A stretch of DNA of 53,370 nt from Eubacteriales bacterium. GTDB lineage: Bacteria; Bacillota; Clostridia; Oscillospirales; CAG-272. Positions 13,611 through 43,270 of the stretch are shown here, in pieces. The DNA lies in NCBI GenBank assembly GCA_045133915.1, contig JBGUUX010000070.1:1-53370 (forward strand), given 5' to 3'. A program made the position numbers and the translations under genes. Each line of letters starts with the position of its first letter. Within the stretch, counting starts at the first letter, position 1. The notes below the pieces were generated by a model, which saw only the letters and a list, made by a program, of their open reading frames with translations, had not been told where the DNA came from and made no database searches.

Positions 13611-13639
13611 TTTACAATGGAAATTATTTGTGTTAAAAT
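13611..13639 (+). promoter_or_regulatory. candidate promoter of tRNA-Arg (TTTACA, 17 nt spacer, TGtTAAAAT)
   Basis: -35 at 13611-13616 and an extended -10 at 13634-13639. The predicted TSS is only a few nt before the mature tRNA 5' end. Confidence 0.5.
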
Positions 13640-13649
13640 ACATAGGTAT

Positions 13650-13726
13650 CCGCCTTTAGCTCAGCTGGATAGAGTACCGGATTCCGATTCCGTTGGTCGC
13701 AGGTTCGAATCCTGTAAGGCGGGCCA
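13650..13726 (+). tRNA. tRNA-Arg (anticodon CCG), CCA encoded
   Basis: Hand-folded cloverleaf. Acceptor CCGCCTT/AAGGCGG, D arm GCTC-AGCTGGATA-GAGT, anticodon arm CCGGA-TTCCGAT-TCCGT, variable loop TGGTC, T arm GCAGG-TTCGAAT-CCTGT, discriminator G, then CCA. 77 nt. Confidence 0.85.
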
Positions 13727-13730
13727 AAAA

Positions 13731-13756
13731 ACCAAGTCTTCGACTTGGTTTTTTTA
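13731..13756 (+). terminator. intrinsic terminator after the tRNA
   Basis: ACCAAGTC-TTC-GACTTGGT followed by a T-run. Confidence 0.85.
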
Positions 13757-13802
13757 TCCAAGCCAAAAGGCTTGGTGTATCATTCATATTCAGAGGTGCA
13801 AT

Positions 13803-14453
13803 ATGATCAACATAACCATCTGGCTTGACAATTTTATAAATACGTTAGAAAACACCTTCGGTAACCGCATTTGGTTTGTAGGTCTGCAGGGTAGCTATGC
13901 AAGAGGTGAAGCTACAGAAACAAGCGATATTGATACCGTCGTTATCCTTGACACCCTTACTACGGAGGATATCACGGCATATAACGCTATGCTTGATACT
14001 CTGCCTCACAGAGAGCTTATCTGCGGCTTTATTTCGGGTAAGAGTGAAATACTTAACTGGGAGCCCTCGGATCTCTTTCAGTTTTATTATGATACCAAGC
14101 CCATAAAAGGCAGTCTTGATGATCTGCTTGAAGTAATAGACGGTACAGTCGTTGACAGAGCAATTAAAACAGGTGCCTGTAACATCTATCACGGCTGTGT
14201 ACACAATATGCTCCATACAAAGAGCGACGATATTCTTCGCGGTTTATATAAAGCCGCATCCTTTGTCATTCAGGCAATCTGCTTTAAAGAAACAGGGAAG
14301 TATATCACCCGCCGTACCGATCTTCTGGAATTTGTTTCAGGTGAGGAACAGAAGATATTAAAAATTATTATTTCATTAAATAACGGTGACAATATCGAGT
14401 TTTCCAAAATGTCCGAAGCCTTGTTTGCCTGGTCACAAAAGCTGATCGGTTGA
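13803..14453 (+). CDS. nucleotidyltransferase-domain protein (pol-beta superfamily; KNTase/ANT-like two-domain layout)
   Basis: The track ORF starts at 13617 but overlaps the tRNA and its terminator. A realistic start is ATG 13803 (MINITIW, AGAGGTG upstream). Contains GLQGSYARGEATETSDIDTVVIL, the G-S-x(n)-DxD NTase motif, plus a helical C-terminal half. Confidence 0.7.
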   Translation: MINITIWLDNFINTLENTFGNRIWFVGLQGSYARGEATETSDIDTVVILDTLTTEDITAYNAMLDTLPHRELICGFISGKSEILNWEPSDLFQFYYDTKPIKGSLDDLLEVIDGTVVDRAIKTGACNIYHGCVHNMLHTKSDDILRGLYKAASFVIQAICFKETGKYITRRTDLLEFVSGEEQKILKIIISLNNGDNIEFSKMSEALFAWSQKLIG

Positions 14454-25693: not shown

Positions 25694-26464
25694 ATGAAAA
25701 TTGCAGTTATAACAGGAGCATCCTCCGGCATAGGTAAGGAATTTGTCAAGCAGATAGACGCCCTTGAAGCCCTTGACGAGATATGGCTTATTGCCAGAAG
25801 AGAAGATAAACTGAAAGCGATAGCTTCCGAGCTTAAGAACAAGAGCAGAATCATCCCTCTTGATCTCTTGAGATCCGAAAGCTTTGACGCTTATAAAAAT
25901 ATGCTTAACGAAGATATAAACGTCAGATATCTAGTCAATGCCTCAGGCTTTGGCAATATGGGAGACTGGTCTGAGATATCAAACGACGCTCAGATGCAGA
26001 TGATAGATCTTAACGTCAAGGCGCTTGTCAGTATGACTAATATAACCATACCACATATGAAGAAGGGAAGTATGATACTGCAGATGGGTTCTGCTTCCGT
26101 GTTCAATCCCTTGCCTTATTTCAACATATATGCATCTACCAAGAGCTTTGTAAGACATTATTCAAGGGCTCTCCACGAGGAGCTTAAGCCTCTTGGTATC
26201 CACGTTACCGTTGTGTGTCCCGGCTGGGTACGTACCGAATTTTTTGATCATACAAATGACAGTAACGTAAGCTACTCGCCTAAGAACTATAAGCCTATGA
26301 CTGAGGCAAAGGACGTAGTACGCCGTGCACTGCGTCATGCAAAGCGAAATAAAGCCTTAAGCATCTACGGCTGGTTTACCAAAACACAGCATATATTAGG
26401 CAAGCTCCTGCCTCATAGCCTTATTATGAAAATGTGGAAGGGTATGCTAAAAGAGAATAAATAA
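25694..26464 (+). CDS. SDR-family short-chain dehydrogenase/reductase
   Basis: ATG 25694 (MKIAVITGASSGIGKEF, the TGxxxGIG motif) and the catalytic YxxxK (YASTK). Confidence 0.85.
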   Translation: MKIAVITGASSGIGKEFVKQIDALEALDEIWLIARREDKLKAIASELKNKSRIIPLDLLRSESFDAYKNMLNEDINVRYLVNASGFGNMGDWSEISNDAQMQMIDLNVKALVSMTNITIPHMKKGSMILQMGSASVFNPLPYFNIYASTKSFVRHYSRALHEELKPLGIHVTVVCPGWVRTEFFDHTNDSNVSYSPKNYKPMTEAKDVVRRALRHAKRNKALSIYGWFTKTQHILGKLLPHSLIMKMWKGMLKENK

Positions 26465-26490
26465 AAAGTCCACCTCGGTGGACTTTTATT
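26463..26490. terminator. bidirectional intrinsic terminator
   Basis: AAAAAGTCCACC-TC-GGTGGACTTTTATT. Confidence 0.8.
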
Positions 26491-26491
26491 T

Positions 26492-26566
26492 ATGTATAGG
26501 AATTTGTGTTGTTGCGTGTGCTAAGTAAACGTCGTTTACTTAGCCGCAGAGCAGGCAACTTGCCGC
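26492..26566 (-). repeat. stop-codon-abutting intergenic repeat element, copy E1
   Basis: The minus strand reads TAA-GCGGCAAGTTGCCTGC-TCTGCGG-CTAAGTAAACGACGTTTACTTAG-CACACGCAACAACACAAATTCCTATACAT. Near-identical segments occur in the copy at 31808-31894. Confidence 0.8.
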
Positions 26567-28003
26567 TTATTTCTTTTTCTTTGCATCCTTTGCAGACTTA
26601 GCAACGATAGAGCCAAGTGCAACGAGAGCAAATGCGTTGGGGATTACCATTAAGTAGTTAAAGAAGTCTGTAAGCTCCCATACGAGATCGTTCTTAAGAA
26701 CAGAACCGAGGAATATGAAAGCTACGGATACAACGGAGTATACAACAACCGCTACCTTTGCATTCTTCTTAAAGAGGTACTGAACGTTGATCTTACCAAA
26801 GAAGTTCCAGCTGATGATGGTAGAGAATGCGAAGAAGAGCAGACATACTGCGATAAAGATAGTACCTACGTCTTCCATACCGGAGGGAAGAGCGGAGCTG
26901 AATGCCTTCTGCATAGCATCAGTCTTGGAAACTATTGCTGCATCGCCGGAGGTAGCTGAGATATAATCAGCACCGAACTTACCTGCAAGGATGCCACCCT
27001 TAGCATAAAGGGAAGAGATAACGACGAGGGCTGTCATGGTGAGAACGACAAAGGTATCGATAAACACACCGATCATAGCAACAACACCCTGATCGTGAGG
27101 CTTCTCTACGTTAGCCATTGCATGGGCGTGAGGTGTAGAACCCATACCTGCTTCGTTGGAGAAGAGACCTCTCTTTGCACCCTGGCTTACAGCGGTCTTG
27201 ATTGCTATACCAACAGCACCGCCGACGAGAGCATCAGGCTTAAACGCGTACTTAAAGATCATACCGAAGGTCTCGGGAATCTGCTTGAAGTTACAACCGA
27301 GAACGATGAAACCGCCGATGAGAAAGAGAACTGCCATTACGGGAACAAGCTTCTCTGTAACGGATGCTATTCTCTGGATACCGCCGATGAAGATAAAGGC
27401 TGCAGCAGCGGTTACTATAAGACCGATAACCCACGTAGGAATTACGGGGAATGCGTTGTTAAAGGATTCTGCAATAGAGTTTGACTGAACCATAGAGCCC
27501 ATGAAGCCAAGTGCAAGTGTAATAGCAACGGCAAAGAATACTGCAAGGAATTTACCGAAGTTACCCTTGAAAGCTTCCTTAATATAGTATACGGGACCGC
27601 CGTGTACGGCGCCGTCTTCGTCAACTTCTCTGGTCTTCTGTGCGAGAATTGCCTCTGCATAGATGGTAGACATACCGAGAAATGCGATAACCCACATCCA
27701 GAAGATAGCACCGGGACCACCTACAAGGATAGCGCCGGAAGCACCTACTATATTACCTGTACCAACCTGAGCTGCAACTGCGGTAGCAAGAGCCTGGAAG
27801 GATGAAAGACCGGACTTGTTCTTTTTACCTCTGAGAGAGATGCCTCCAAATACTCGCTTAAGACCTTCGCCGAAGCAACGTACCTGAACAAAGCGTGTTC
27901 TGACGGTGAAGTAAAGACCTACACCGATGAGCAGGATTATAAGGATATAATCCGCCAGATAACTGTTGATAGTCGCAACTATCTTTAAAAGTGTTTCCTG
28001 CAT
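26567..28003 (-). CDS. alanine/glycine:cation symporter (AGCS family)
   Basis: About 478 aa and polytopic, with the AGCS motifs SSFQALATAVAAQVGTGNIVG and GLFSNEAGMGS. ATG 28003 follows GGAGGC, and the track's TTG at 28015 lies in the terminator T-run just upstream of that RBS. Confidence 0.9.
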   Translation of the reverse strand: MQETLLKIVATINSYLADYILIILLIGVGLYFTVRTRFVQVRCFGEGLKRVFGGISLRGKKNKSGLSSFQALATAVAAQVGTGNIVGASGAILVGGPGAIFWMWVIAFLGMSTIYAEAILAQKTREVDEDGAVHGGPVYYIKEAFKGNFGKFLAVFFAVAITLALGFMGSMVQSNSIAESFNNAFPVIPTWVIGLIVTAAAAFIFIGGIQRIASVTEKLVPVMAVLFLIGGFIVLGCNFKQIPETFGMIFKYAFKPDALVGGAVGIAIKTAVSQGAKRGLFSNEAGMGSTPHAHAMANVEKPHDQGVVAMIGVFIDTFVVLTMTALVVISSLYAKGGILAGKFGADYISATSGDAAIVSKTDAMQKAFSSALPSGMEDVGTIFIAVCLLFFAFSTIISWNFFGKINVQYLFKKNAKVAVVVYSVVSVAFIFLGSVLKNDLVWELTDFFNYLMVIPNAFALVALGSIVAKSAKDAKKKK

Positions 28004-28013
28004 AAATGCCTCC

Positions 28014-28500
28014 AAAAAAAATAAAAGTTGCTAATAATAGCAACTCCGGAAAAACAGCATATAATTCTACTATATACTAACTCTATCCTTTTGCCTGAGA
28101 GATTCGGATCTGATAATAATTATTACCGTCACCTTGCACCTTCGGCACTCAGTTTAAGTTGAGAAGATTCGAATTATCACGGTTTTATGCGGCTGATAAC
28201 TGCCATCTCATTGTCAGCGATCTAGTCAATATCGCCTATATTGCCGTCAATCGCTTCCGCAATCTGACAGCTATCAGCCCGCCTAAAACTGTATAGCACA
28301 TTCGGACGAGAGATTTTTGAGAAAGTTTAGTCGGCGAAGTCCGCAGGCTTACTTGGATGCAAGTCAAGGACGAGACGGCTGAAATAGCCTAAAATCTCCG
28401 TCCTAATGCGTGACAATTCGATTCTTCTCAACTTACGAGATTCTCCAGAGTTTCCTCCACCTTCAGTCATCCTAAAGGTTTCACAGGAATTATTAACTTG
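28014..28500 (-). promoter_or_regulatory. glycine riboswitch leader: one complete aptamer with a greatly expanded P2, plus an intrinsic terminator
   Basis: The minus strand carries CTCTGGAGAA (28450-28441), TGCCGAAGGTGCAA (28147-28134), AATCTCTCAGGCAAAAGGATAGAG (28104-28081), and the hairpin AGTTGCTATTATTAGCAACT (28045-28026) plus a U-run. The downstream gene class is a classic glycine-riboswitch target. Confidence 0.75.
28155..28435 (-). other. 281-nt structured insertion nested in riboswitch P2 (26-nt inverted arms plus a 229-nt multi-helix core)
   Basis: Arms 28155-28180 and 28410-28435 are complementary at 24 of 26 positions, plus one G:U on the minus strand. Internal helices pair 28189-28205 with 28265-28282 and 28304-28317 with 28391-28403. 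No ORF. Confidence 0.7.
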
Positions 28501-28506
28501 GGCATG

Positions 28507-28535
28507 AGTATATCACAGTAAAACAAAAAAATCAA
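28507..28535 (-). promoter_or_regulatory. candidate promoter of the riboswitch leader (TTGATT, 17 nt spacer, TGaTATACT)
   Basis: Reverse strand: -35 at 28535-28530 and an extended -10 at 28512-28507. Confidence 0.5.
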
Positions 28536-30205: not shown

Positions 30206-31693
30206 ATGAAAATGAAGAAATTAAGTGCAATTTTATTAACAGCGTGCATGCTCGTTACATCACTTGCTATGTTTGTAAACGCGAGCCCCCACGGTATCAT
30301 CGAAAACGATCCCGTTTCTGTTCCTACCGCAACTCCTACTGTTGACGGTGTGATCGATGCAGGTGACGGTTGGTCCGAACCCGCAAAGATGGACTACGAT
30401 ACCTGCGGCTTCTTCTGGCAGCAGAATCCTATGTCTTCTAAGGCTGATCTCTACTTCGCATACGACGAAGAGGGTCTCTACTATGCAGCAGACATTACCG
30501 AAGGTCTTGAGTGTGTACACGAGATCACCGGTGAGGATATGACCGGTAGAAACAAGTTCCTGTACTCCACAGGTGAAGACTGGATCGACGTAAACGCAGA
30601 TGATCCCACCGAGCATTACGGTTATGACGGCGACGTATTCGGTCTCCTCGTTGACCCCGCTGAGGGTATGCTCAACGGCGGTTTCTCCTCTGACTATACT
30701 CCTTGGTATCTCGTTGGTCTCTTTGAAGGCGAAAACGGTGACGTTGCCAAGATGTACAGACAGAAGATCAATCAGGGCGATATTACCGAAGAAGAGGGCG
30801 TTGAGGTTGCAGGTGCTAAGACCGAGAACGGTTGGCGCTTTGAAGCTAAGATTGCTTGGGATATCATCATTGCAGATATCGAAAGCATTACATACGGTGA
30901 TGTAGTTCTTACCGTTGACGATATTATCGCAAACGGCGCTATCTCCAAGGTAGCAGGTATGTATCAGGACAGATTCTATGATGAAGAAGCAGGCGAAGTT
31001 GCAACATGGGGCCGTTACGTAACCGCTCCCGAGTCTCAGGCAGACGGTACACCCGGTCATATGGGTTCCGGTGACCTTGTTTGCTCCTGCGGTATCACTC
31101 TCGTAGCAGGCAGCGGCGTTTATGAAAATCCTTTCACCGACGTTAAGGATAACCACTGGTTTGCAGAGTCTGTTAAGTACTGTGTACAGAAGGGTTATGC
31201 TTCCGGTATGACCGCTACAACATTTGTTCCTAACGGTATACTTACCAGAGCTCAGTTCCTTACTCTCCTTGCTAAGCTTGACGGTGTTGATCTTGAGCAG
31301 TATGCTACAACAGACGCAGGTTTTGAAGACGTTAAGGTTGCTCATTGGTACAACAAGGTTGTATGCTGGGCGGTTGAAAAGGAACTTACTGCAGGTCTTA
31401 CACCTACTACATTTGGTCCTAACAATTCCGTAACCAGAGCGCAGGTTGCAAGATTCCTTTACGTATATTCCGAGAAGAACGGTATTGACGTTTCCGGCAA
31501 GGCTGATATCTCCGTATATCCCGATGCATCTAAGGTTGCTAACTGGGCACAGGATGCTATAGCATGGGCGGTTGACGCAGGCGTTATCGGCGGTGTTAAG
31601 AAGGACGACGTTAACTATCTTGAGCCCAACGGTACAGCAACAAGAGCTCAGGCTACCGTAATGTTCAAGGCTTTTGACGCATTTAGAAAATAA
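30206..31693 (+). CDS. secreted protein with an N-terminal carbohydrate-binding-like (CBM9/DOMON-like, tentative) domain and three C-terminal SLH repeats
   Basis: Signal peptide. SLH repeats FTDVKDNHWFAESVKY, FEDVKVAHWYNKVVCW and YPDASKVANWAQDAIAW, each followed by the TRAQ motif. Confidence 0.75.
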   Translation: MKMKKLSAILLTACMLVTSLAMFVNASPHGIIENDPVSVPTATPTVDGVIDAGDGWSEPAKMDYDTCGFFWQQNPMSSKADLYFAYDEEGLYYAADITEGLECVHEITGEDMTGRNKFLYSTGEDWIDVNADDPTEHYGYDGDVFGLLVDPAEGMLNGGFSSDYTPWYLVGLFEGENGDVAKMYRQKINQGDITEEEGVEVAGAKTENGWRFEAKIAWDIIIADIESITYGDVVLTVDDIIANGAISKVAGMYQDRFYDEEAGEVATWGRYVTAPESQADGTPGHMGSGDLVCSCGITLVAGSGVYENPFTDVKDNHWFAESVKYCVQKGYASGMTATTFVPNGILTRAQFLTLLAKLDGVDLEQYATTDAGFEDVKVAHWYNKVVCWAVEKELTAGLTPTTFGPNNSVTRAQVARFLYVYSEKNGIDVSGKADISVYPDASKVANWAQDAIAWAVDAGVIGGVKKDDVNYLEPNGTATRAQATVMFKAFDAFRK

Positions 31694-33180: not shown

Positions 33181-34410
33181 ATGATGAAACGTATAATTTC
33201 CTGTATTTTAATTATTGTTATTATGTCGGCTTTTGCCGTAAATATATCCGCATTCAGCTATACACAGATAGCAAGTGAGAGCGAATGGCAACTCCTTGAT
33301 CTGATCAACAGACAGCGTAGGGAAGCTGCTACTATGTTTATTTCGCTTCAGGATGCGGCTCACACAAGATCAAACGAGCTTTTAGCTGAGCTTTCTCATT
33401 ACAGACCCGACGGAGATCCCTGGTATACAGTGCTTACCGACAAGGGCGTTGGATATGACACCGAGAGCTTTGAGATAATCGGTGCAAATTTCGGTACTCC
33501 TAAGGCCTTTCTTGATGCGGTGCTTAAATCTGATATGAAGGACAAGCTCTTAAACGGCGGTGTTCATATAGGTGTGGGACATACCTCTGCCGCAGGCGCA
33601 AAGAACTCAGATGCTTGGTGCATCATTGGCGTAAGCTGTAAGGGTATCAGTGCAATATCCCTTCATTATGATGATATTCATCTTACCGCAGGCGGTAACT
33701 TATCTACGGTTGACGCTACCGTTGAGGCAGAATGTGAGCATACACGTTCCTACATGAAGCTGCTTCCCAATATGATAAGCGGTTACGATAATTCCAAAAT
33801 AGGCACTCAGATATTAAAGGCTGCTTATAAGGGTAAAAGTGCAGAGCTTGTAATAACCAACGACTATAAGGACGTTAAGCCGGGTGTATGGTATTACAGT
33901 CCTATAATGAACTGTACAGCACAGGGCTATTATTCGGGTGTAGGTAACGGTAATTTCAATCCCTCGGGACAGATGACAAGAGAGATGTTTGTAACAGTAT
34001 TAGGTAGGCTTGCGGATATAGACGTTACAAAATATACCGGTACAAGCTTTGGTGACGTAAAGAGCGACCGTTGGTCTGCTCCCTATATCAAATGGGCGTC
34101 GGATAACGGTATTGTATCGGGATATAACGACGGCAGCTTTGCTCCTACAAAGGGAATAACCCGACAGGAAATGTGTTCCGTGGTCAAGCGCTATCTTGAT
34201 AAGTATGATATAACAATAGAGCAGACAAACGCCGAAAAAGACTTTACAGACAGTAATATGATAGCCTCCTGGGCAAAGGAAGCTGTAAGCTACTGTCAGA
34301 CAAGGGGTATAATCTCAGGCGACGCTAAGGGCGCGTTTAACCCGTCTAAAACGGCTACCCGCGCCGAGGTTGCGGTGATAATAACAAATCTGGATAACAA
34401 AATAAAATGA
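33181..34410 (+). CDS. secreted CAP/SCP-like domain protein with C-terminal SLH repeats
   Basis: Signal peptide. N-terminal region resembling the bacterial SCP/CAP domain (ELLDLINRQRRE...HIGVGH). SLH repeats YKDVKPGVWYYSPI, FGDVKSDRWSAPYIKW and FTDSNMIASWAKEAVSY. Confidence 0.7.
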   Translation: MMKRIISCILIIVIMSAFAVNISAFSYTQIASESEWQLLDLINRQRREAATMFISLQDAAHTRSNELLAELSHYRPDGDPWYTVLTDKGVGYDTESFEIIGANFGTPKAFLDAVLKSDMKDKLLNGGVHIGVGHTSAAGAKNSDAWCIIGVSCKGISAISLHYDDIHLTAGGNLSTVDATVEAECEHTRSYMKLLPNMISGYDNSKIGTQILKAAYKGKSAELVITNDYKDVKPGVWYYSPIMNCTAQGYYSGVGNGNFNPSGQMTREMFVTVLGRLADIDVTKYTGTSFGDVKSDRWSAPYIKWASDNGIVSGYNDGSFAPTKGITRQEMCSVVKRYLDKYDITIEQTNAEKDFTDSNMIASWAKEAVSYCQTRGIISGDAKGAFNPSKTATRAEVAVIITNLDNKIK

Positions 34411-34438
34411 GCAGTCATATGACTGCTCATTATTTTTA
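34408..34438. terminator. bidirectional intrinsic terminator overlapping both stop codons
   Basis: TGAGCAGTCA-TA-TGACTGCTCA followed by TTATTTTTA. Confidence 0.8.
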
Positions 34439-37400
34439 TATGTTTATTACGTAGTAGTTATAGGATTCGTCGTCATACTGTACACAGAAAGTATATATAC
34501 CTGATTTGAGATCCTTTACGGCTATAACGCCGTCAACTATCTTGTCAGCCTTGAGCGCTTTTGAACCCTTAGCCGCCTTGATCTGGCTCGACGTTGTATA
34601 TTCCCCCATAGCGTATCTTATCATCACCATTCCGTCAAGCTCACCAAAGATAACTGTATTATCTTTCTGCTCAACGGTAGGAAGCTTCTTTGTTACGTTA
34701 TAGTGATATACCTTCTGATATCCGTTGTTATATTCAACGATTATTGTGACCATACCTTCTTCTCTGTACTGTATTGTATAAGGGTCTTTACCCTTGATTG
34801 CAGTCTTTGCAGAGAAATTACGTATAGTGTCGGTAGCCTTAAGCTCCTTAACAGTATTCCATTTGCCGTATGCGGTACGGATGACCTTTACGTCAGGGAG
34901 ATTGGATACAGTTACCTGCAAGCCGTTGACGGTAAATACAGGCTCGTCTACTACAAGAGTTTCGTGGAACACCTTATAACTGCCGTCATTGTATCTGATA
35001 AGCACAGTATGTACACCGGGCTCGTATACGGTATAGTTGTATTCGTGCTTGCCCTGTATCTTGTTTACACCGGCGCTGAATATATAACCGTTTTGCTTAA
35101 TCTCGGAATAACTGTTAAATTCACCCTTAGCAATAAAGAAGTCTTTTACATCATAGAGGTTATGTATTGTAATCTTAACACCGTAAGCTGAAACGTAGGG
35201 TGTGAAGTTAGTTACGTCCATAGCCTTCAGGAAGGTAGTTCCGTCAATCATTCTTACCCATACGGTATAGTAACCGCCGTTGGGAATGTTATATACAAAG
35301 TCAGAGCCAACTATTCGCTTTTCTATGAAAGACTTGTCAAGATTTACACAGTCGGCAGCGTTACGGATAGATGCTGCTGTTTCGTGTACACCGCTTGCAT
35401 ATCTGATATGGTCTATGTCAGATGCGTTTGTCATGGTAACGGTGTAGTTATCAACCGTGATCTCTGTGTTGAGTACGGGTATCTCGTAGATATCTCTGTT
35501 TGTGGCTGTAAGCACAAACTGAGAGAACTTGTCTACCTCGACTGTTACGGTATCCTCATTTGTGTCAAGATCGGCTATTACAGATACCTCACCCTTATGC
35601 TCGTGGAGGATAAAGTAGTGTTTGTAGCCACGGTGCGCTTCGGGAATATCAATTGTTATTCTCAGCTTACCCATAGCCGATGTCTCTTTTGAAATATCGG
35701 TAATATTGGAAGTAACGCCGTCGGTAGTCTTGGTAAGGGTTATATCATAGTACTTAAGTATAGTTTTGTTTTCAGCTGCATCAAGGATCTCCTGAGCAAC
35801 AAACTCGTCATAAGTATTGATACCGTCGTTATCTATTGTGGGAGCTTCTATCTCGTTTGCGGTAACTTCAAATGAGACGTCTTTGCTGTTGGCTATATCC
35901 TCGCTTGTTACGATAAGACCGTTCATGGAAAGGTCAAAACCGTCGGTAGAAGTAAAGCTACAACCGCAGAGAAGAGCACACATAGACTCAAGCTTTGTAA
36001 CGTACAGCTCTGACAGATAAAGTCTTTCAGACTCGGTAAGGGAGTCGTATATTGCCTTTTCACGGGAAACTCTTGCTCTGTAGGCTTCGGCTTCTGCCGA
36101 TGTGGAGCAGGTGGGAACCTCGTCAAAGAACGCCTTTTCAATATTTGTTATCTTAACGTTCTTTTCGATTTCGATAGTACTGTCACCGTATACCGCACCG
36201 TTAGATATGACCACTGTAGCATAGCCAACGCCACCGTCGTCGGTAGTTGCTCTTACGGTGAATATACCTTCACCAACGTAGCCAAAGTGGTACTTACCGT
36301 TGGAGAGGGTAGTCATTCTTGCACGCTCACGTCCGCTCTGATAGTAGAGTACAACCTCTGCTTCGGTAGTCTTGCCGTCACGGTATACTGTACCGCGGAT
36401 GTTAGACATATCGTTTTCGGCTTCCTGCATAGTCAGTGCACCGACGTTGGAGACACCTTCACCCGTAACCTCAACGATCGTATAGGTTCTAAGGTTATAT
36501 ATCTTGTTATAACCAAGGCCGCTGGGACGGTATTCGTTTGTAGTGCAGGAGAGTATATAGGTTCCTGCGGGTACACCCTCTATCGTAAAGCATCCGTTTT
36601 CGTCACTGTTAAGGGATGCTACGTTTCTACGGTCAGAGAGTCTTGCCAGACCTATCATAGCATAGGGTCTGAGCTTAACCGTAGTGTCTCTGTTTTCTAT
36701 GTATGTAAAACCTGTGATACTGCCGCAGGGCTGCTTTGTGCCCTCTACGTATATATCGGTCAGGTCACCGCCGGAAACGGTGATGTCCTTGAGCTCTGTA
36801 CCGAACTCATTTTCTATTTTGAGTATATAGTCGCCTGTGGGAATATTGTCAAAGCTGAAGCTGCCATCCTCGGGAACAACACTATCAATAATATTACCCT
36901 CGGTATCTGTTATCGTAACTTTGGTGACGTCATCGGATACGTTACCGCTGACAGTGAAGCCCTTGTTGAGAACAAGCGACGTATCGCCTGTAAGGATAAC
37001 GTCAAAGGCGTCGAGACGCTTTACATTTACCTTGGTAAAGTACTGACCCTCGGGGGCTTGTGCACGGATAGTGTAGCTTCCTACCTCGGCATAGGTGAGG
37101 ACGTATCTGCCGTCGGAACCGGTAATGACACTTTCCTTTACAACACCGTCGTTATAGAGGATGTCTACCTTTACTCCTACGGCAGGTGTACCGTCGGTAT
37201 ACTTAACGCTGCCTACGATGCTTGTACCGTAAGCAATATCGGGATTGCCTGTCTTACGCAGTACGAAGTGAAGCAGGTTATATGTACGGCACCACTCCAG
37301 AGACTCGGTATTGTCGTATACCAGCTTGATGGTGTTGGCAGAGAAGGCGTCGTCAGCAAGATAACGTATGCTTGCGGGGATAAGAACCATCTTGATAGAA

Positions 37401-40400
37401 TCACAATCTGCAAATACTCTGGTGCTTATCTGCTCGATGCCCTCGCCTATGGTAACCTTACTGATGCTTGTACCCTCAAAGGCGGAGTTAAAGAGGTTGT
37501 ATACACTTCCGGGGATATGTATCTCGGTTATAGAGCTACATCCGTAGAATGCCCTTTCGCCTATATGCTCAAGCCCCTCGGGAAGAACTACGCCTGTGAG
37601 CTTGAGACAGTTTGTGAAGGCATAGTTCTCTATGCGACGCAGACCATCGTGCATTATAGCGGTTTCCATCTTGTCGCATTTTACAAAGGCGTTCTGACCG
37701 ATACAGGTAACACCCTTGCCGAGGTCGATATATTTTAGGTTGCGACAGTAATAGAAGGTATTATCCTTTATCTCTGTAACTGTGTCGGGGATGACGATAG
37801 ACTCTATCTTTGAATTATAGAATGCGTTGTCACCAAGATAGGTGAGAGAGTCGGGCATATCTATCTCGGCAAACGCCGTAGCATAGAAGGCATATGAACC
37901 GATATATTCAACGCTGTCGGGAATGGTGATGCTTGTAAGGGAGCTACATCCTCTGAAGGAGTTATCTCCTATCTTGCGCACTCCGTCACTTAATATGACC
38001 GATTTAAGAGATTTTGCACCGTCAAATGTGCCTCTTATCTCAACCACGGGGGCATCTCCTATATAAGCGGGCACGGTGACCTCGGTAGCCACACCGTCAA
38101 ACCTAAAGGCAATAGCCTCACCGTTGTATATAAAGTAGGATATACCGTCAACAGTGACGATCTCGATGGCAGAGTCGGCGTTGCTTATAATGTACATATA
38201 GCCGTTATCCTCGGCAAAGCTTTGAGCGTAGCTGCCTTCCGCAACGATAAGGATAGCAGTGGCGGGAATAGCACTGGATGAAATTGTGGTAGTAGAGGCA
38301 GGAATCACTATAGTAGCAAGACTGCCACAGGAATTAAATGCATTAGAGCTTATTTGGTATACGCCTTCCTCGATTGTTACTTTTTCGAGAGAGTAACACT
38401 CTGCGAAAGCATAGTTATATATGTTACCAATGCTACCGGGGATCGTTACCTCTGTGAGAGAGGTGCAACGGTAGAATGCATAGCTGGTCATAAACACACC
38501 GTCGGGGTTTTCGGGAAGTCTTACCTCTTTAAGCAAGCTGCACTGTGAGAACGCATACTGACCTATAGATGTGATATTATCGCCTAAGTAGATAGACTCA
38601 AGGGCAGTACAACGGTTAAAGGTAGACATACCGATACTTGTAATACCTTCAGAGAGCTTTACACTCTTAAGGGCGGTACAGTTGGTGAATGCAGAGGTAC
38701 CTAAGGTGGTTACGGTATCAGGCATTTCAACACTTAAAAGTCCGTCGCAGCCGTAGAATGCCTCGGAGCCGATGTAGGTAAGTCCCTCGGGCAGCTCGAT
38801 GCCGGTGAGCCCGTCACAGTTATAGAAGGCATCGTCGCCTATATATTCGATGCTTGCAGACATCTTGATCTCACTTAAGTTATAACATCCCGAGAAGGTA
38901 GCGGCACCGATAGTAGTAACGCTGTCGGGAATTGTAACCTTCTTAAGAGAAGATGTGTTACTGAAGCATCCGCGAAGCTCGGTTACGGGGTAGCCGTTGA
39001 CCTCAGCGGGGATATTGAGCTCGGTCTGATTCTTTTCCGACTTGAATGCTATTGCATGATCCTCGATGATACAGTAAGTAACACCGTCGATTACGGGGAA
39101 CACGGGATCTGTGCCGTCATAAATAACGTATAGAAGTCCGTTATCTCTTGCAATCTTATGGGCATTGGAATCCTGATATACAAGAAGGAAGGTAGTGGAA
39201 GGGAAGCTTCCGTCATAGAAGTATCCGATATCCTTGGGCATACGTACCATCTCAAGCTTATCGCAATCACGGAACGCCTGATACATAACGCCGTCAACAC
39301 CTTCACCGAGGGTAACCTCGGCAAGCTCATAACAGCTGTCAAAGGCATTGTTGCCGACACCCTCGACCGTTCCGGGGATGGTTACGCTTTTAAGGCCCTT
39401 ACAGTAGCCGAAGCTGTAGTAGGTAAGATATTTAAGTCCCTCGGGTAAAACAACGTTTTCAAGGGCGTGACAAGCGTTAAAGGCATAGTTGTCGATCTGT
39501 TCGAGCTTAGGTGAGAAGATAAGCTCTGTCATAGCATCACATCTGGCGAATGCATAGTAGCCTACGTAGGTTACGTTAGCACCCATATATACAGACTTAA
39601 GCTTACGGCATTCCTGGAAGGTAGCGTACTTGATTTCGCTTACGTTGTCTGATATACGAACCGATGTTATTCCGGAATACTGGAACGCATAGGATTCTAT
39701 CTCTGTTACCGAGTCGGGGATATAGATATCAGCTTCTCCAATGCTTGCAAAAGCGTAAGATCCGATATAGGTTACGGTCTCGGGAATGTTTACCTCAGTA
39801 AGAGCGCTGCATCCGTAGAATGCTTCGTCCTCAATACGGCGAAGACCCTCGGGCAGAGTTACTTTGGTAAGAGTAGTTGCGTTCTTAAAGGCTCCGTGTA
39901 TTTCGGTTACGGGATAACCCTGTATCGTTGCGGGAACGGTAACCTCGCTTACAGAACCGTCAAAGCCGTTAAGATAAGCCTGACCGTTATAGAGGTAATA
40001 GGTAAGACAGCCCTCGGTTACTGTGATGGGGGTAGCGGAGGTGGTCATAAGCTCGTAGCTTAAAGAGTTCTCCATAGCGTAGATATGAGCCTCAGAGCCC
40101 TCGTCACACCATATCTTAAGGTCAGAGCACAGGGCAAATGCCTCGGGTGCTATAGCGGTAACACCCTCGTAGAGAACGATAGAGTTCATAGCATCACAGC
40201 TATAGAAGGCGCCCGCACCAATGGTGGTAAGCATATGGGTGGTTACGATACAAACAAGGTTATCTGCATCATAGAACGCTTCGTCACCTATCTCGGTGAC
40301 GGTAATAGGAAGGGCAACGCTGTTGATAACGTCGTTATCCTTAAATGCCCCTTCGGCAACCTTTGTAACCTTAAGACCTTCTATCTCCGAAGGCACGTAT

Positions 40401-40564
40401 ACATCGGTATCGTTACCGTTATACTTTGTTACAGCAATGCCGTCACCGTATGCTTCGTATTCCCATTCAGTTGCAGCCTCACTCTCTTCTGCGCTTACAG
40501 AAAAGGGAATACCGCATATTAAAAATGAAAACACTAAAATTAAAGACAATATTTTTTTAAACAT
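34436..40564 (-). CDS. giant secreted surface protein (2042 aa): three BspA-type leucine-rich-repeat modules, CarboxypepD_reg-like beta-sandwiches, and four C-terminal ~85-aa repeats
   Basis: ATG 40564 with GGAGAA (MFKKILSLILVFSFLICGIPFSVSAEE signal peptide). Dozens of repeats follow the pattern xVTxIGxxAFxxCxxLxxVxIP. There are three paralogous module heads (GYPVTEIHGAF, GYPVTELRGCF, DAPVVEIRGTF). No LPXTG, SLH or C-terminal TM. Confidence 0.85.
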   Translation of the reverse strand: MFKKILSLILVFSFLICGIPFSVSAEESEAATEWEYEAYGDGIAVTKYNGNDTDVYVPSEIEGLKVTKVAEGAFKDNDVINSVALPITVTEIGDEAFYDADNLVCIVTTHMLTTIGAGAFYSCDAMNSIVLYEGVTAIAPEAFALCSDLKIWCDEGSEAHIYAMENSLSYELMTTSATPITVTEGCLTYYLYNGQAYLNGFDGSVSEVTVPATIQGYPVTEIHGAFKNATTLTKVTLPEGLRRIEDEAFYGCSALTEVNIPETVTYIGSYAFASIGEADIYIPDSVTEIESYAFQYSGITSVRISDNVSEIKYATFQECRKLKSVYMGANVTYVGYYAFARCDAMTELIFSPKLEQIDNYAFNACHALENVVLPEGLKYLTYYSFGYCKGLKSVTIPGTVEGVGNNAFDSCYELAEVTLGEGVDGVMYQAFRDCDKLEMVRMPKDIGYFYDGSFPSTTFLLVYQDSNAHKIARDNGLLYVIYDGTDPVFPVIDGVTYCIIEDHAIAFKSEKNQTELNIPAEVNGYPVTELRGCFSNTSSLKKVTIPDSVTTIGAATFSGCYNLSEIKMSASIEYIGDDAFYNCDGLTGIELPEGLTYIGSEAFYGCDGLLSVEMPDTVTTLGTSAFTNCTALKSVKLSEGITSIGMSTFNRCTALESIYLGDNITSIGQYAFSQCSLLKEVRLPENPDGVFMTSYAFYRCTSLTEVTIPGSIGNIYNYAFAECYSLEKVTIEEGVYQISSNAFNSCGSLATIVIPASTTTISSSAIPATAILIVAEGSYAQSFAEDNGYMYIISNADSAIEIVTVDGISYFIYNGEAIAFRFDGVATEVTVPAYIGDAPVVEIRGTFDGAKSLKSVILSDGVRKIGDNSFRGCSSLTSITIPDSVEYIGSYAFYATAFAEIDMPDSLTYLGDNAFYNSKIESIVIPDTVTEIKDNTFYYCRNLKYIDLGKGVTCIGQNAFVKCDKMETAIMHDGLRRIENYAFTNCLKLTGVVLPEGLEHIGERAFYGCSSITEIHIPGSVYNLFNSAFEGTSISKVTIGEGIEQISTRVFADCDSIKMVLIPASIRYLADDAFSANTIKLVYDNTESLEWCRTYNLLHFVLRKTGNPDIAYGTSIVGSVKYTDGTPAVGVKVDILYNDGVVKESVITGSDGRYVLTYAEVGSYTIRAQAPEGQYFTKVNVKRLDAFDVILTGDTSLVLNKGFTVSGNVSDDVTKVTITDTEGNIIDSVVPEDGSFSFDNIPTGDYILKIENEFGTELKDITVSGGDLTDIYVEGTKQPCGSITGFTYIENRDTTVKLRPYAMIGLARLSDRRNVASLNSDENGCFTIEGVPAGTYILSCTTNEYRPSGLGYNKIYNLRTYTIVEVTGEGVSNVGALTMQEAENDMSNIRGTVYRDGKTTEAEVVLYYQSGRERARMTTLSNGKYHFGYVGEGIFTVRATTDDGGVGYATVVISNGAVYGDSTIEIEKNVKITNIEKAFFDEVPTCSTSAEAEAYRARVSREKAIYDSLTESERLYLSELYVTKLESMCALLCGCSFTSTDGFDLSMNGLIVTSEDIANSKDVSFEVTANEIEAPTIDNDGINTYDEFVAQEILDAAENKTILKYYDITLTKTTDGVTSNITDISKETSAMGKLRITIDIPEAHRGYKHYFILHEHKGEVSVIADLDTNEDTVTVEVDKFSQFVLTATNRDIYEIPVLNTEITVDNYTVTMTNASDIDHIRYASGVHETAASIRNAADCVNLDKSFIEKRIVGSDFVYNIPNGGYYTVWVRMIDGTTFLKAMDVTNFTPYVSAYGVKITIHNLYDVKDFFIAKGEFNSYSEIKQNGYIFSAGVNKIQGKHEYNYTVYEPGVHTVLIRYNDGSYKVFHETLVVDEPVFTVNGLQVTVSNLPDVKVIRTAYGKWNTVKELKATDTIRNFSAKTAIKGKDPYTIQYREEGMVTIIVEYNNGYQKVYHYNVTKKLPTVEQKDNTVIFGELDGMVMIRYAMGEYTTSSQIKAAKGSKALKADKIVDGVIAVKDLKSGIYTFCVQYDDESYNYYVINI

Positions 40565-40587
40565 ATATTCTCCTATAGTCACAAAGA

Positions 40588-40612
40588 GGCTTGATAAGAA
40601 TATTATCAAGCC
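40588..40612 (-). terminator. hairpin after valS (weak U-tract)
   Basis: The minus strand reads GGCTTGATA-ATATTCT-TATCAAGCC followed by TCTTTGTG. It lies 18 nt after the valS stop and 23 nt before the LRR gene ATG. Confidence 0.45.
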
Positions 40613-40630
40613 ACTTTACTGAAAGTCTAA

Positions 40631-43270
40631 TTACTTATTGATCTTTGCTATAGCTGCTTCAACGCCTGCGAGAACGTCCTTGTACTTAGCAAGCTTTGCC
40701 TTTTCGCCTTCCACAACTGCTGCGGGAGCCTTAGCCACAAAGCCTTCGTTGCCAAGCTTCTTCTCAAGTCTTTCTATCTCGCCGATGGTCTTTTCGCGTT
40801 CCTTTGTAAGACGCTCAAGCTCCTTTTCCATATCAAGAACCTCTGCAAGAGGAATAAATACGGTGCAGGAGGGAGTTACTATCTGAACTGCGTCAGTATC
40901 GGCATACTCGGAAACAACCTCAACCTCGGATGCGGAAGCCAGTCTCTGGAAGAATACAAAGGTATCCTCGTTGAATATGTCGGTACGGTCGGTAACGATA
41001 TAGTTCTTTGCCTTCTTTGAGGGAGGAACGTTCATTTCGTTACGGCGTACACGGATAGCCTTTATAGCCTCGATAAGAGCGTTCATCTTTTCCTCGTCTT
41101 CGGGGAAGTTCAGGCACTCACAAGCTGTGGGATACTCGGAAACCATGATAGAGTCGCCCTCGTGGGGAAGGGTCTGCCAGATCTCCTCTGTGATAAAGGG
41201 CATAAAGGGATGCAGAAGCTTAAGAGTGTTTGAAAGAACGTAGGAGATAACCTGCTGAGCGGACTTAGAGCCTGCGTTAAGTCTGGGCTTAAGAAGCTCG
41301 ATATACCAGTCGCAGAAGATATCCCAGATAAAGTCGTAGAGCTTGGAGAGTGCAACACCCAGCTCGTAGTTTTCGATGTTCTGGGTAACCTCACTTACAA
41401 GACGGTTGTAGAGAGAAAGGATCCACTTATCCTCGATCTGCATATCCTCTACAGCGGGAAGCTCAAGCTTTTCGATATCAAGATTCATAAGAACAAATCT
41501 TGCGGCATTCCATACCTTGTTGTTAAAGTTTCTTGCCGCTTCGATCTTCTCGGGGGAGTATCTCATATCGTTTCCGGGAGAGTTACCTGTTGCAAGAGCA
41601 AATCTCAGCGCGTCTGCGCCGTACTTCTCAATCTCTATAAGGGGATCGATACCGTTACCGAGGGACTTTGACATCTTACGTCCCTGAGCATCACGAACAA
41701 GACCGTGGATAAATACGTCGGGGAAAGGAATAGCGTCCTTTGTTTCCTTGCCTTCCATGGTATCAAGGGACATAAAGATCATCTTGGATACCCAGAAGGT
41801 GATGATATCGTATGCGGTAACGAGAACGTTTGTGGGATAGTAGTAGTTAAGCTCCTTTGTATCCTCGGGCCATCCGAGAGTAGAGAAGGGCCAAAGAGCA
41901 GAGGAGAACCAGGTATCAAGAACGTCGTCTTCCTGCTTGATGTTAGTGCTCTTACACTTAACGCACTCGTGTACGTCGGTCTCGCTCACCATAACCTCGC
42001 CGCAGTCCTTACAGTAGTATGCGGGGATACGGTGACCCCACCAGAGCTGACGGGAGATACACCAGTCGTGGATGTTTTCCATCCAGTAGAGATAGTTCTT
42101 GGAGAAACGGTCGGGAATATATCTGATGTTGCCTTCTTTAACTACCTTGATTGCAGGCTCAGCAAGGGGCTTCATCTTAACGAACCACTGCTTTGATGCA
42201 AGAGGCTCGATTACTGTTCCGCAACGGTAGCAGTGAGCTACGTTGTGGCTGTGCTTTTCGGTCTTTACAAGATAGCCTTCAGCTTCAAGGTCTGCAACAA
42301 GTGCCTTTCTTGCCTCGTAGCGATCCATACCCTTATACTTGCCACCTGCCTCGGTGATAGTACCGTCTTCGTCGATAGCAAATATCATAGGAAGGTCGTG
42401 GCGTGTACCAACCTCAAAGTCGTTGGGGTCGTGGCAGGGAGTGATCTTAACACAGCCTGTACCAAAATCCTTTTCAACGTACTCGTCGGCAATGATGGGT
42501 ATCTCACGGTCTGTCATAGGCAGCTTGAGCATCTTGCCGATAAGGTGGGTATATCTTTCGTCCTCGGGGTGAACTGCAACTGCGGTATCACCGAACATTG
42601 TCTCGGGACGGGTAGTAGCGATGGTAAGGTACTCGTCTGTACCAACGATGGGGTATCTGATATGCCAGAAGGAGCCTTCAAGATCCTTGTACTCAACCTC
42701 TGCATCAGAAAGCGCAGTGTTACAGTGAGGACACCAGTTTGTTATACGAAGTCCACGGTAGATAAGTCCCTTGTCGTAGAGACGAACGAAGGTCTTTTTA
42801 ACTGCAGCGGAGAGGGTATCGCTCATTGTAAAAGCTTCTCTTGTCCAGTCGCAGGAAGAACCAAGCTTCTTGAGCTGACCGATAATAGTACCGCCGTACT
42901 GCTCCTTCCACTGCCAAACAAGCTTAAGGAACTCCTCACGACCGATATCGTGGCGGGTAAGACCCTTTTCCTTACGGAGCACCTCTTCTACCTTGATCTG
43001 TGTTGCAATACCTGCATGGTCACAGCCGGGAACCCAAAGGGTAGAGTAGCCCTGCATACGCTTGGTACGGATAATGATATCCTGAAGGGTATTGTTGAGG
43101 GCGTGTCCCATGTGGAGCTGACCTGTAACGTTAGGCGGGGGAATAACTATAGAGAAGGGTTTCTTCTTTTCATCCATCTCGGGGGTAAAGTAGCCGTTAT
43201 CGCACCAGAACTGATATAAACGGTCCTCTATCTCCGCGGGAGAATATGTCTTGTTAAGTTCTTTTTTCAT
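40631..43270 (-). CDS. valS: valine--tRNA ligase
   Basis: 879 aa with HIGH ([12 protein letters not shown]), KMSKS, and a C-terminal coiled coil. Confidence 0.97.

Follow-up and report, generated by a model that had tools for sequence, protein, structure and literature searches.

The window analysed here, the complete MAG contig JBGUUX010000070.1 (53,370 nt) of an uncultured gut or rumen Clostridia bacterium, carries on its minus strand an intact gene for a 478-aa symporter of the AGCS family, preceded by a leader in which a glycine riboswitch aptamer is split by 281 nt of non-coding DNA. On direct reading of the minus strand of 28600-27900, the three aptamer motifs CTCTGGAGAA (28450-28441), TGCCGAAGGTGCAA (28147-28134) and AATCTCTCAGGCAAAAGGATAGAG (28104-28081) lie 5' of the AGCS gene and are followed by a terminator with its U-run and by a ribosome binding site (RBS), all of them, together with the two arms of an inverted repeat, exactly where the initial annotation of this locus had placed them. 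The parts of the leader are given below in the order of the minus strand, where TIR stands for terminal inverted repeat, H1 and H2 for the internal helices of the inserted element, L001 and L002 for two relatives without the insertion, and L003, L112 and L113 for loci from three samples with a shortened form of it.

28507..28535 (-): leader promoter candidate, TTGATT-17-TATACT with a TG extension, also kept in L001 and L002
28453..28488 (-): P0/kink-turn-like element and ghost-aptamer stem-loop (ACCUUUAG-GAUGA-CUGAAGGU), with a partial RF03166 alignment
28441..28452 (-): P1 5' strand AACUCU and conserved GGAGAA junction, the switching strand
28436..28440 (-): P2 5' half (UCUCG)
28155..28435 (-): inserted palindromic element, 281 nt, non-coding, in the P2 loop
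28410..28435 (-): left TIR, TAAGTTGAGAAGAATCGAATTGTCAC
28231..28352 (-): 122-nt segment deleted in L003, L112 and L113 (element nt 84-205), holding the H1 3' arm and the H2 5' arm
28155..28180 (-): right TIR, with 2 mismatches relative to the left TIR
28148..28154 (-): AAC bulge and P2 3' half (UGAG)
28079..28147 (-): remaining glycine aptamer (GCCGAAGG..GCAA, P3, CUCAGGCAAAAGGA and the P1 3' strand), from the RF00504 alignment
28084-28079 (-): P1 3' strand AGAGUU
28042..28049 (-): putative antiterminator 3' strand CCGGAGUU, a second complement of the P1 5' strand that overlaps the terminator 5' arm
28014..28047 (-): intrinsic terminator hairpin (28047-28024) and U-tract
28013-28009 (-): RBS GGAGG, followed by the ATG at 28003
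26567..28003 (-): AGCS gene (Na+/alanine-glycine symporter, PF01235), intact, 478 aa

Elsewhere in the window, the sole tRNA is a tRNA-Arg(CCG) at 13650-13726 (+), overlapped by a mechanical ORF at 13617-14453; in one of the relatives compared (L108) a homologous tRNA lies directly downstream of the AGCS gene, so the synteny there differs from that of the window. Two very large adjoining ORFs of 2057 aa and 879 aa occupy 34436-43270 (-) and, together with two SLH-domain proteins nearby (30206-31693 and 33181-34410), may form a cell-surface protein cluster. An extra gene for a 750-aa LRR_5/SLH surface protein lies between the AGCS and short-chain dehydrogenase genes of L001 (L001:4551-6803), and the window and L002 are without it. 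A 969-bp contig (L107:1-969) joins window positions 26072-26515 (+) to 27087-26555 (-), which would reflect either an inversion or rearrangement near the 3' half of the AGCS gene or a chimeric assembly.

The hallmarks of a glycine aptamer are present in order on either side of the insertion, with AACUCU (28452-28447) and AGAGUU (28084-28079) closing the junction around GGAGA, GCCGAAGG.GCAA and CUCAGGCAAAAGGA. A ghost stem-loop with P0/kink-turn (28488-28453) stands 5' of this single aptamer; its 8-bp stem has compensatory changes relative to L001 (GUUUCCGG/CCGGGAAU) and is present in the predicted folds. Since the ghost stem-loop is positioned upstream of the aptamer, we assign the leader to the type-2 singlet glycine riboswitches as defined by Ruff et al. 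2016 (PMC5066625), of which it is an ordinary member. It shares with that class (PMC5066625; RF00504) the ghost stem and P0/kink-turn-like element followed by one aptamer, the GGAGA, GCCGAAGG..GCAA and CUCAGGCAAAAGGA cores, and a short P1 as the switching helix. It differs in P2: the hairpin is 281 nt longer in the window, roughly tenfold the largest P2 among 72 orthologues. Because of these extra nucleotides the Rfam model recovers only the 3' part of the aptamer with a false P1: RF00504 matches the window at 28181-28073 only (40.1 bits, with a gathering threshold of 32 bits), and the P1 in this match is poor, mismatched and borrowed from the right arm of the inverted repeat. The match to RF00504 proposed as a check in the initial annotation was obtained for the 3' part of the aptamer, with a spurious closing helix, against about 57 bits for the same aptamer in relatives with an empty site.

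The AGCS protein cluster at 90% identity or more has four other members. Two of them, L001 and L002, share the MgtC / NAD-synthase / AGCS synteny of the window, with an intergenic region about 280 nt shorter. When aligned with the window, the whole leader is conserved, and the 281 nt are absent exactly between the TCTC and TGAG of P2, where both relatives read TCTCTTAAGTGAG. The aptamer at these empty sites is contiguous and matches RF00504 at 57.0 bits in L001 and 57.3 bits in L002, with AACUCU/AGAGUU as P1. Because the flanking motifs form one contiguous 57-bit aptamer at these empty sites, the reading of the window as a split aptamer is correct. The DNA of L002 shares 95-97% identity with that of the window across 7.4 kb, which places it in the same species, and L001 (82-90% identical) is a sister species. 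Three more distant loci (L108-110, about 80% amino-acid identity) are likewise empty, with TCTCTTAAATGAG at this point. The distance from GGAGA to GCCGAAGG was also taken in 72 orthologous leaders of GTDB species representatives and near relatives; it ranges over 13-31 nt, most often 17, compared with about 297 nt in the window. The earlier description of a single glycine aptamer interrupted in P2, with the two arms extending P2, is right. Neither the same-species relative nor any of the 77 others examined has the insertion. Since the relatives and orthologous leaders are uninterrupted, the riboswitch is an old and conserved feature, and only a sub-lineage of one gut/rumen Clostridia species carries the insert.

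The expression platform suggests how the leader would work. A second sequence complementary to the P1 5' strand with the adjoining GG (AACUCUGG) is CCGGAGUU at 28049-28042 (-). An equivalent complement lies 33-59 nt past the 3' strand of P1 in 52 of 63 orthologous AGCS leaders, with a perfect 8/8 match in about 27, and it changes along with P1, as when GGCUCUGG occurs with UUGGAGCC or GACUUUGG with CCAAAGUC. With glycine bound, P1 (AACUCU/AGAGUU) would form, leaving the terminator free to fold and AGCS expression off; with no glycine, the P1 5' strand would pair with CCGGAGUU just upstream of the terminator and block it. We infer that the AGCS leader acts as a glycine-OFF transcription-termination switch. 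The covarying complement (28042-28049; leaders L027-L106) would also define a conserved antiterminator, and hence glycine-OFF logic, throughout this type-2 singlet clade. In S. pyogenes a glycine riboswitch represses an AGCS/SAF gene (PMC5829553), and the same OFF logic is predicted here because of the covarying antiterminator/terminator arrangement. The two systems have the gene family in common, and glycine repression of the S. pyogenes Na+:alanine symporter proceeds by premature termination (PMC5829553); that switch is a tandem aptamer without an insertion, whereas the OFF behavior of the present leader is a prediction from sequence.

The insertion itself is a palindrome. Its two 26-nt TIRs differ at 2 of 26 positions and form 24 Watson-Crick pairs, one G:U and one A:A, precisely the pairing first described for them, and an equivalent inverted-repeat match arose in none of 100 shuffles. 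Both of the additional long helices that had been picked out in the 229-nt core enclosed by the TIRs exist (H1, element nt 33-45/119-132; H2, nt 154-171/231-247). No ORF of at least 60 aa overlaps the element, the longest being 43-47 aa, also in agreement with the initial annotation. The GC content of the element (44.5%, and 47% for the core) is close to the contig average of 44.9%, unlike that of the surrounding leader (30-35%), which is consistent with imported DNA. At E up to 10 Rfam recovered, besides the glycine aptamer itself, a partial match of glycine-GGAnGA to the ghost stem upstream and a twister-P3 alignment due to chance; the search of the core for a known RNA family, proposed when the element was first noticed, gave nothing at the gathering threshold or at E up to 10 beyond that twister-P3 alignment (E = 6.2, far under threshold). 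A short stretch near the left end, AUUAGGACGGAGAU (28394-28407, element nt 29-42), partly mimics the P1-3' motif AAAGGAUAGAG of the aptamer and is aligned there by RF03166; it could be a decoy partner for the P1 5' strand and is unused in the predicted folding.

Several of these features are those of a MITE. The 26-nt TIRs stand at the exact ends of a 281-nt non-coding insertion whose boundaries are set by the empty sites, and the insertion is polymorphic for presence and absence, with an intact empty site in both L002 and L001. It lies at a TA within TTAA, and a TA model gives the symmetric junction TCTCG-TA-[AGTTGAG...CTCAACT]-TA-AACTGAG, from which excision would leave a 16-nt P2 resembling that of the relatives. 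No clear target-site duplication was found at the junctions: both ends have TA or TTAA, but this sequence is itself a palindrome and runs on into the TIRs. At two positions the flanks of the element differ from the empty sites, with a T to G change at 28436 and an extra C at 28152.

Searches for other copies were uniformly negative. There was no second copy in the 53-kb window (blastn, word size 7) or in 106 related loci totalling 1.35 Mb (blastn and nhmmer), and the exact 20-nt TIR pattern had 0 matches in 185,579 species-representative (GTDB) genomes. The 22 matches to the TIR pattern in JGI metagenomes were all due to chance and limited to the 18-22-nt pattern, and the IMG/VR viral contigs gave 1 chance match to the TIR and 0 to two internal patterns. 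Similarly, the element was not found in plasmid or phage collections (distant mode), and its concatenated six-frame translation, used to catch any spurious ORF annotated on another copy, had no match at E up to 10 among 5.8 billion protein clusters. A Pfam scan of ten window ORFs (230-495 aa; five close to the leader, the other five from elsewhere in the window) revealed no transposase, and no exact 18-20-nt TIR match extended into a parent IS in the GTDB representatives, JGI metagenomes or IMG/VR. In all, no similarity of the element to any annotated record was found, and it is represented by one locus with two allelic forms. The anatomy of the element, with its clean 26-bp TIRs, no reverse transcriptase or other gene and no Rfam match, speaks against a retron, a group II intron, attC and IS200/IS605 ends, all of which were rejected.

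The closest likeness is to the Correia elements of Neisseria and other IS630-type MITEs, which are also short and non-coding, have TIRs of about 26 bp, insert at TA, are co-transcribed, form long hairpins in mRNA (predicted here) and vary in presence and absence among strains. In those families a genome contains tens to hundreds of copies, and the cognate transposase is known, whereas the present element was found at one locus. Another IS630-type bacterial MITE is RUP of S. pneumoniae. Because no second copy, clear target duplication or parent IS was found, we class the element only as MITE-like; it is probably a MITE-like or IS-remnant insertion at TA/TTAA in the P2 loop. Of the two origins envisaged in the initial annotation, a MITE-like palindrome tolerated through extension of P2 fits the evidence.

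The same insertion, at the same site and lacking 122 nt, occurs in three independent samples (L003, ERZ28614150; L112, ERZ28633682; L113, ERZ27297164). The carriers thus amount to four samples, three of them with the 122-nt deletion, and the TIRs are intact in every one. Lost with these 122 nt are H1's 3' arm (nt 119-132) and H2's 5' arm (nt 154-171), so that the partner arms are orphaned with no compensation, and the resulting 159-nt form, which has lost 43% of the length of the element, refolds on the same terminal stem. Since the deletion orphans the partner arms of H1 and H2, the short form is derived from the long one. The opposite order, with an ancestral 159-nt form that acquired a nested 122-nt insertion, was rejected: neither inverted ends nor a duplication mark the 122-nt segment, and it provides the partners for the H1 and H2 arms left orphaned in the short form. 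The insertion is a recent one, with its interior already decaying and its terminal stem kept.

Some peculiarities of the carrier contigs may be mentioned here. The ENA assemblies L112 and L113, which come from different samples, share an endpoint within the right TIR, to the base (L112:1 and L113:1; window 28171), and the end of a Logan contig falls 14 nt outside the left TIR (L111:1; window 28449); contig ends at or near the TIRs could be assembly breaks at the palindrome or reflect allele heterogeneity in those samples. In L003 the leader and element are 99.7-100% identical to the window and the gene body 97.7%, which suggests recombination around the locus. The AGCS gene of L003 departs from that of the window in its last 48 nt or so and beyond (1947-2064), giving a product of 475 aa as opposed to 478 aa, and the terminator U-tract (around 520-545) has a 7-nt insertion.

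Partition-function folding of the nascent transcript gave pair probabilities of about 1.0 for the TIRs, with the ghost stem formed and the P1 5' strand without a partner inside the element. For the completed aptamer with the insert, P1 had a pair probability of 0.82-0.88, and the ghost stem, P1 and P3 were predicted as in the excised version. Because predicted folding with the insert keeps these three helices, the element behaves in the model as an autonomous extension of P2 via a 3-nt bulge. Relatives differ in the length of P2 (13-31 nt), so an extension closed by a helix is plausibly tolerated, and the switch can plausibly still fold. Differences in the AGCS ORF are mostly synonymous (20 synonymous and 6 non-synonymous relative to L002; 118 and 22 relative to L001). 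We infer that the riboswitch with its insert still works.

Taken as a whole, the locus is probably best explained as a type-2 singlet OFF switch that carries a MITE or IS-remnant palindrome as a tolerated passenger in P2. In a sub-lineage of a single species, a 281-bp element with 26-bp TIRs entered the P2 loop at TA/TTAA. Once transcribed, the TIRs would pair into a helix of about 26 bp that stacks on the 4-bp P2 across the 3-nt bulge, and the 281 nt would act as a self-contained extension of a naturally length-variable hairpin, leaving the ghost aptamer, P1, P3 and the expression platform untouched. The element would then be a passenger and not a sensor, with its interior being lost and its terminal stem kept.

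That the insert is instead a selected functional RNA module grafted on P2 (a second sensor, protein-binding platform or ribozyme), the other reading offered in the initial annotation, we regard as highly improbable. The element does have a very stable fold on the transcript strand (-116.8 kcal/mol, z -9.1 against shuffles), 6.9 kcal/mol more stable than the opposite strand's, and the allele persists in four samples. Furthermore, the three wobbles in the named helices are all G:U on the transcript strand, an asymmetry that had been taken as a sign of selection on the RNA fold. However, three of three is not significant (two-sided p 0.25), G:U pairs in the minimum-free-energy folds number 9 for the transcript strand against 6 for the opposite strand, and the latter folds nearly as well (-109.9 kcal/mol, z -8.4). 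Because both strands fold strongly, the structure of the element is chiefly a matter of DNA-level palindromy. The core also lacks an Rfam match, and homologues beyond the same locus were not found, hence there is no covariation to support a conserved structured domain; the only variant is the 122-nt deletion. This deletion, which destroys both internal helices in three of the four carriers, largely refutes a grafted module, and its lack of compensation, together with the absence of the insert from the same-species relative and all other relatives examined, contradicts that reading on the terms set for it in advance. A riboswitch is joined to a ribozyme in one composite leader in Clostridioides difficile, where a c-di-GMP-II riboswitch is combined with a group I intron. 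The present leader resembles it in that a riboswitch is physically linked to another large structured RNA; in C. difficile, however, the parts are conserved, adjacent and functionally coupled, whereas the element described here is nested, belongs to no known family, is strain-specific and loses 43% of its length. Nor does an origin other than a transposon seem at all likely, whether the palindrome arose by an error of replication or recombination or was captured as a foreign or chromosomal fragment with inverted ends. Such an origin would account for the failure to find another copy, a parent IS or an unambiguous target duplication, and is in keeping with a core GC content at the genome average and with a Y-shaped arrangement of three nested palindromes, unlike the simple two-end structure of many MITEs. 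Against it, clean 26-bp TIRs begin exactly at the insertion boundaries, at TA/TTAA, the insertion is precise with the flanking aptamer sequence intact, and a source sequence was not found in the window or the related loci.

An inserted palindrome of the same origin might also disable or rewire the switch, resulting in constitutive termination or read-through of AGCS, and this we consider doubtful, though less so than the alternatives above. Only the P1 5' switching strand is located 5' of the insert, with all else 3' of it, and cleavage by RNase III of the duplex of about 30 bp made by P2 and the TIRs could sever this strand from the aptamer and platform; alternatively, the remainder now follows the switching strand with a delay of 281 nt, which could alter the kinetics. 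The predicted transcript contains a perfect-enough duplex of at least 26 bp, the TIR stems of Correia elements in mRNAs are substrates that RNase III cleaves (PMC10969869), and UUAGGACGGAGAU inside the element partly mimics the P1 3' motif. Nevertheless, the predicted folds keep P1, the ghost stem and P3 unchanged with the switching strand free, P2 naturally varies in length (13-31 nt), the AGCS ORF is intact, and the allele has lasted long enough to acquire a secondary deletion and spread to four samples. It is rather improbable, finally, that the insertion allele is a naturally re-engineered switch kept by selection, in which an RNase III site or a folding delay changes the glycine response of AGCS; such a switch would account for the survival of the terminal stem alongside the loss of the interior.

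With the insert taken as a tolerated passenger, this leader offers a clean natural case of a palindrome of the mobile-element type inside a riboswitch aptamer, with no conserved nucleotide touched. It reveals no new RNA class or regulatory principle, and its significance is modest unless the insertion allele regulates differently. For annotation with covariance models it is a caution, since insertions of this kind yield a truncated aptamer with a false P1. Finally, public metagenomes offer all three allelic states of the locus, with no element, with the full 281 nt or with the deleted form of 159 nt, and this allelic series constitutes a ready-made experiment on the load of foreign structured RNA that a peripheral aptamer helix may bear.
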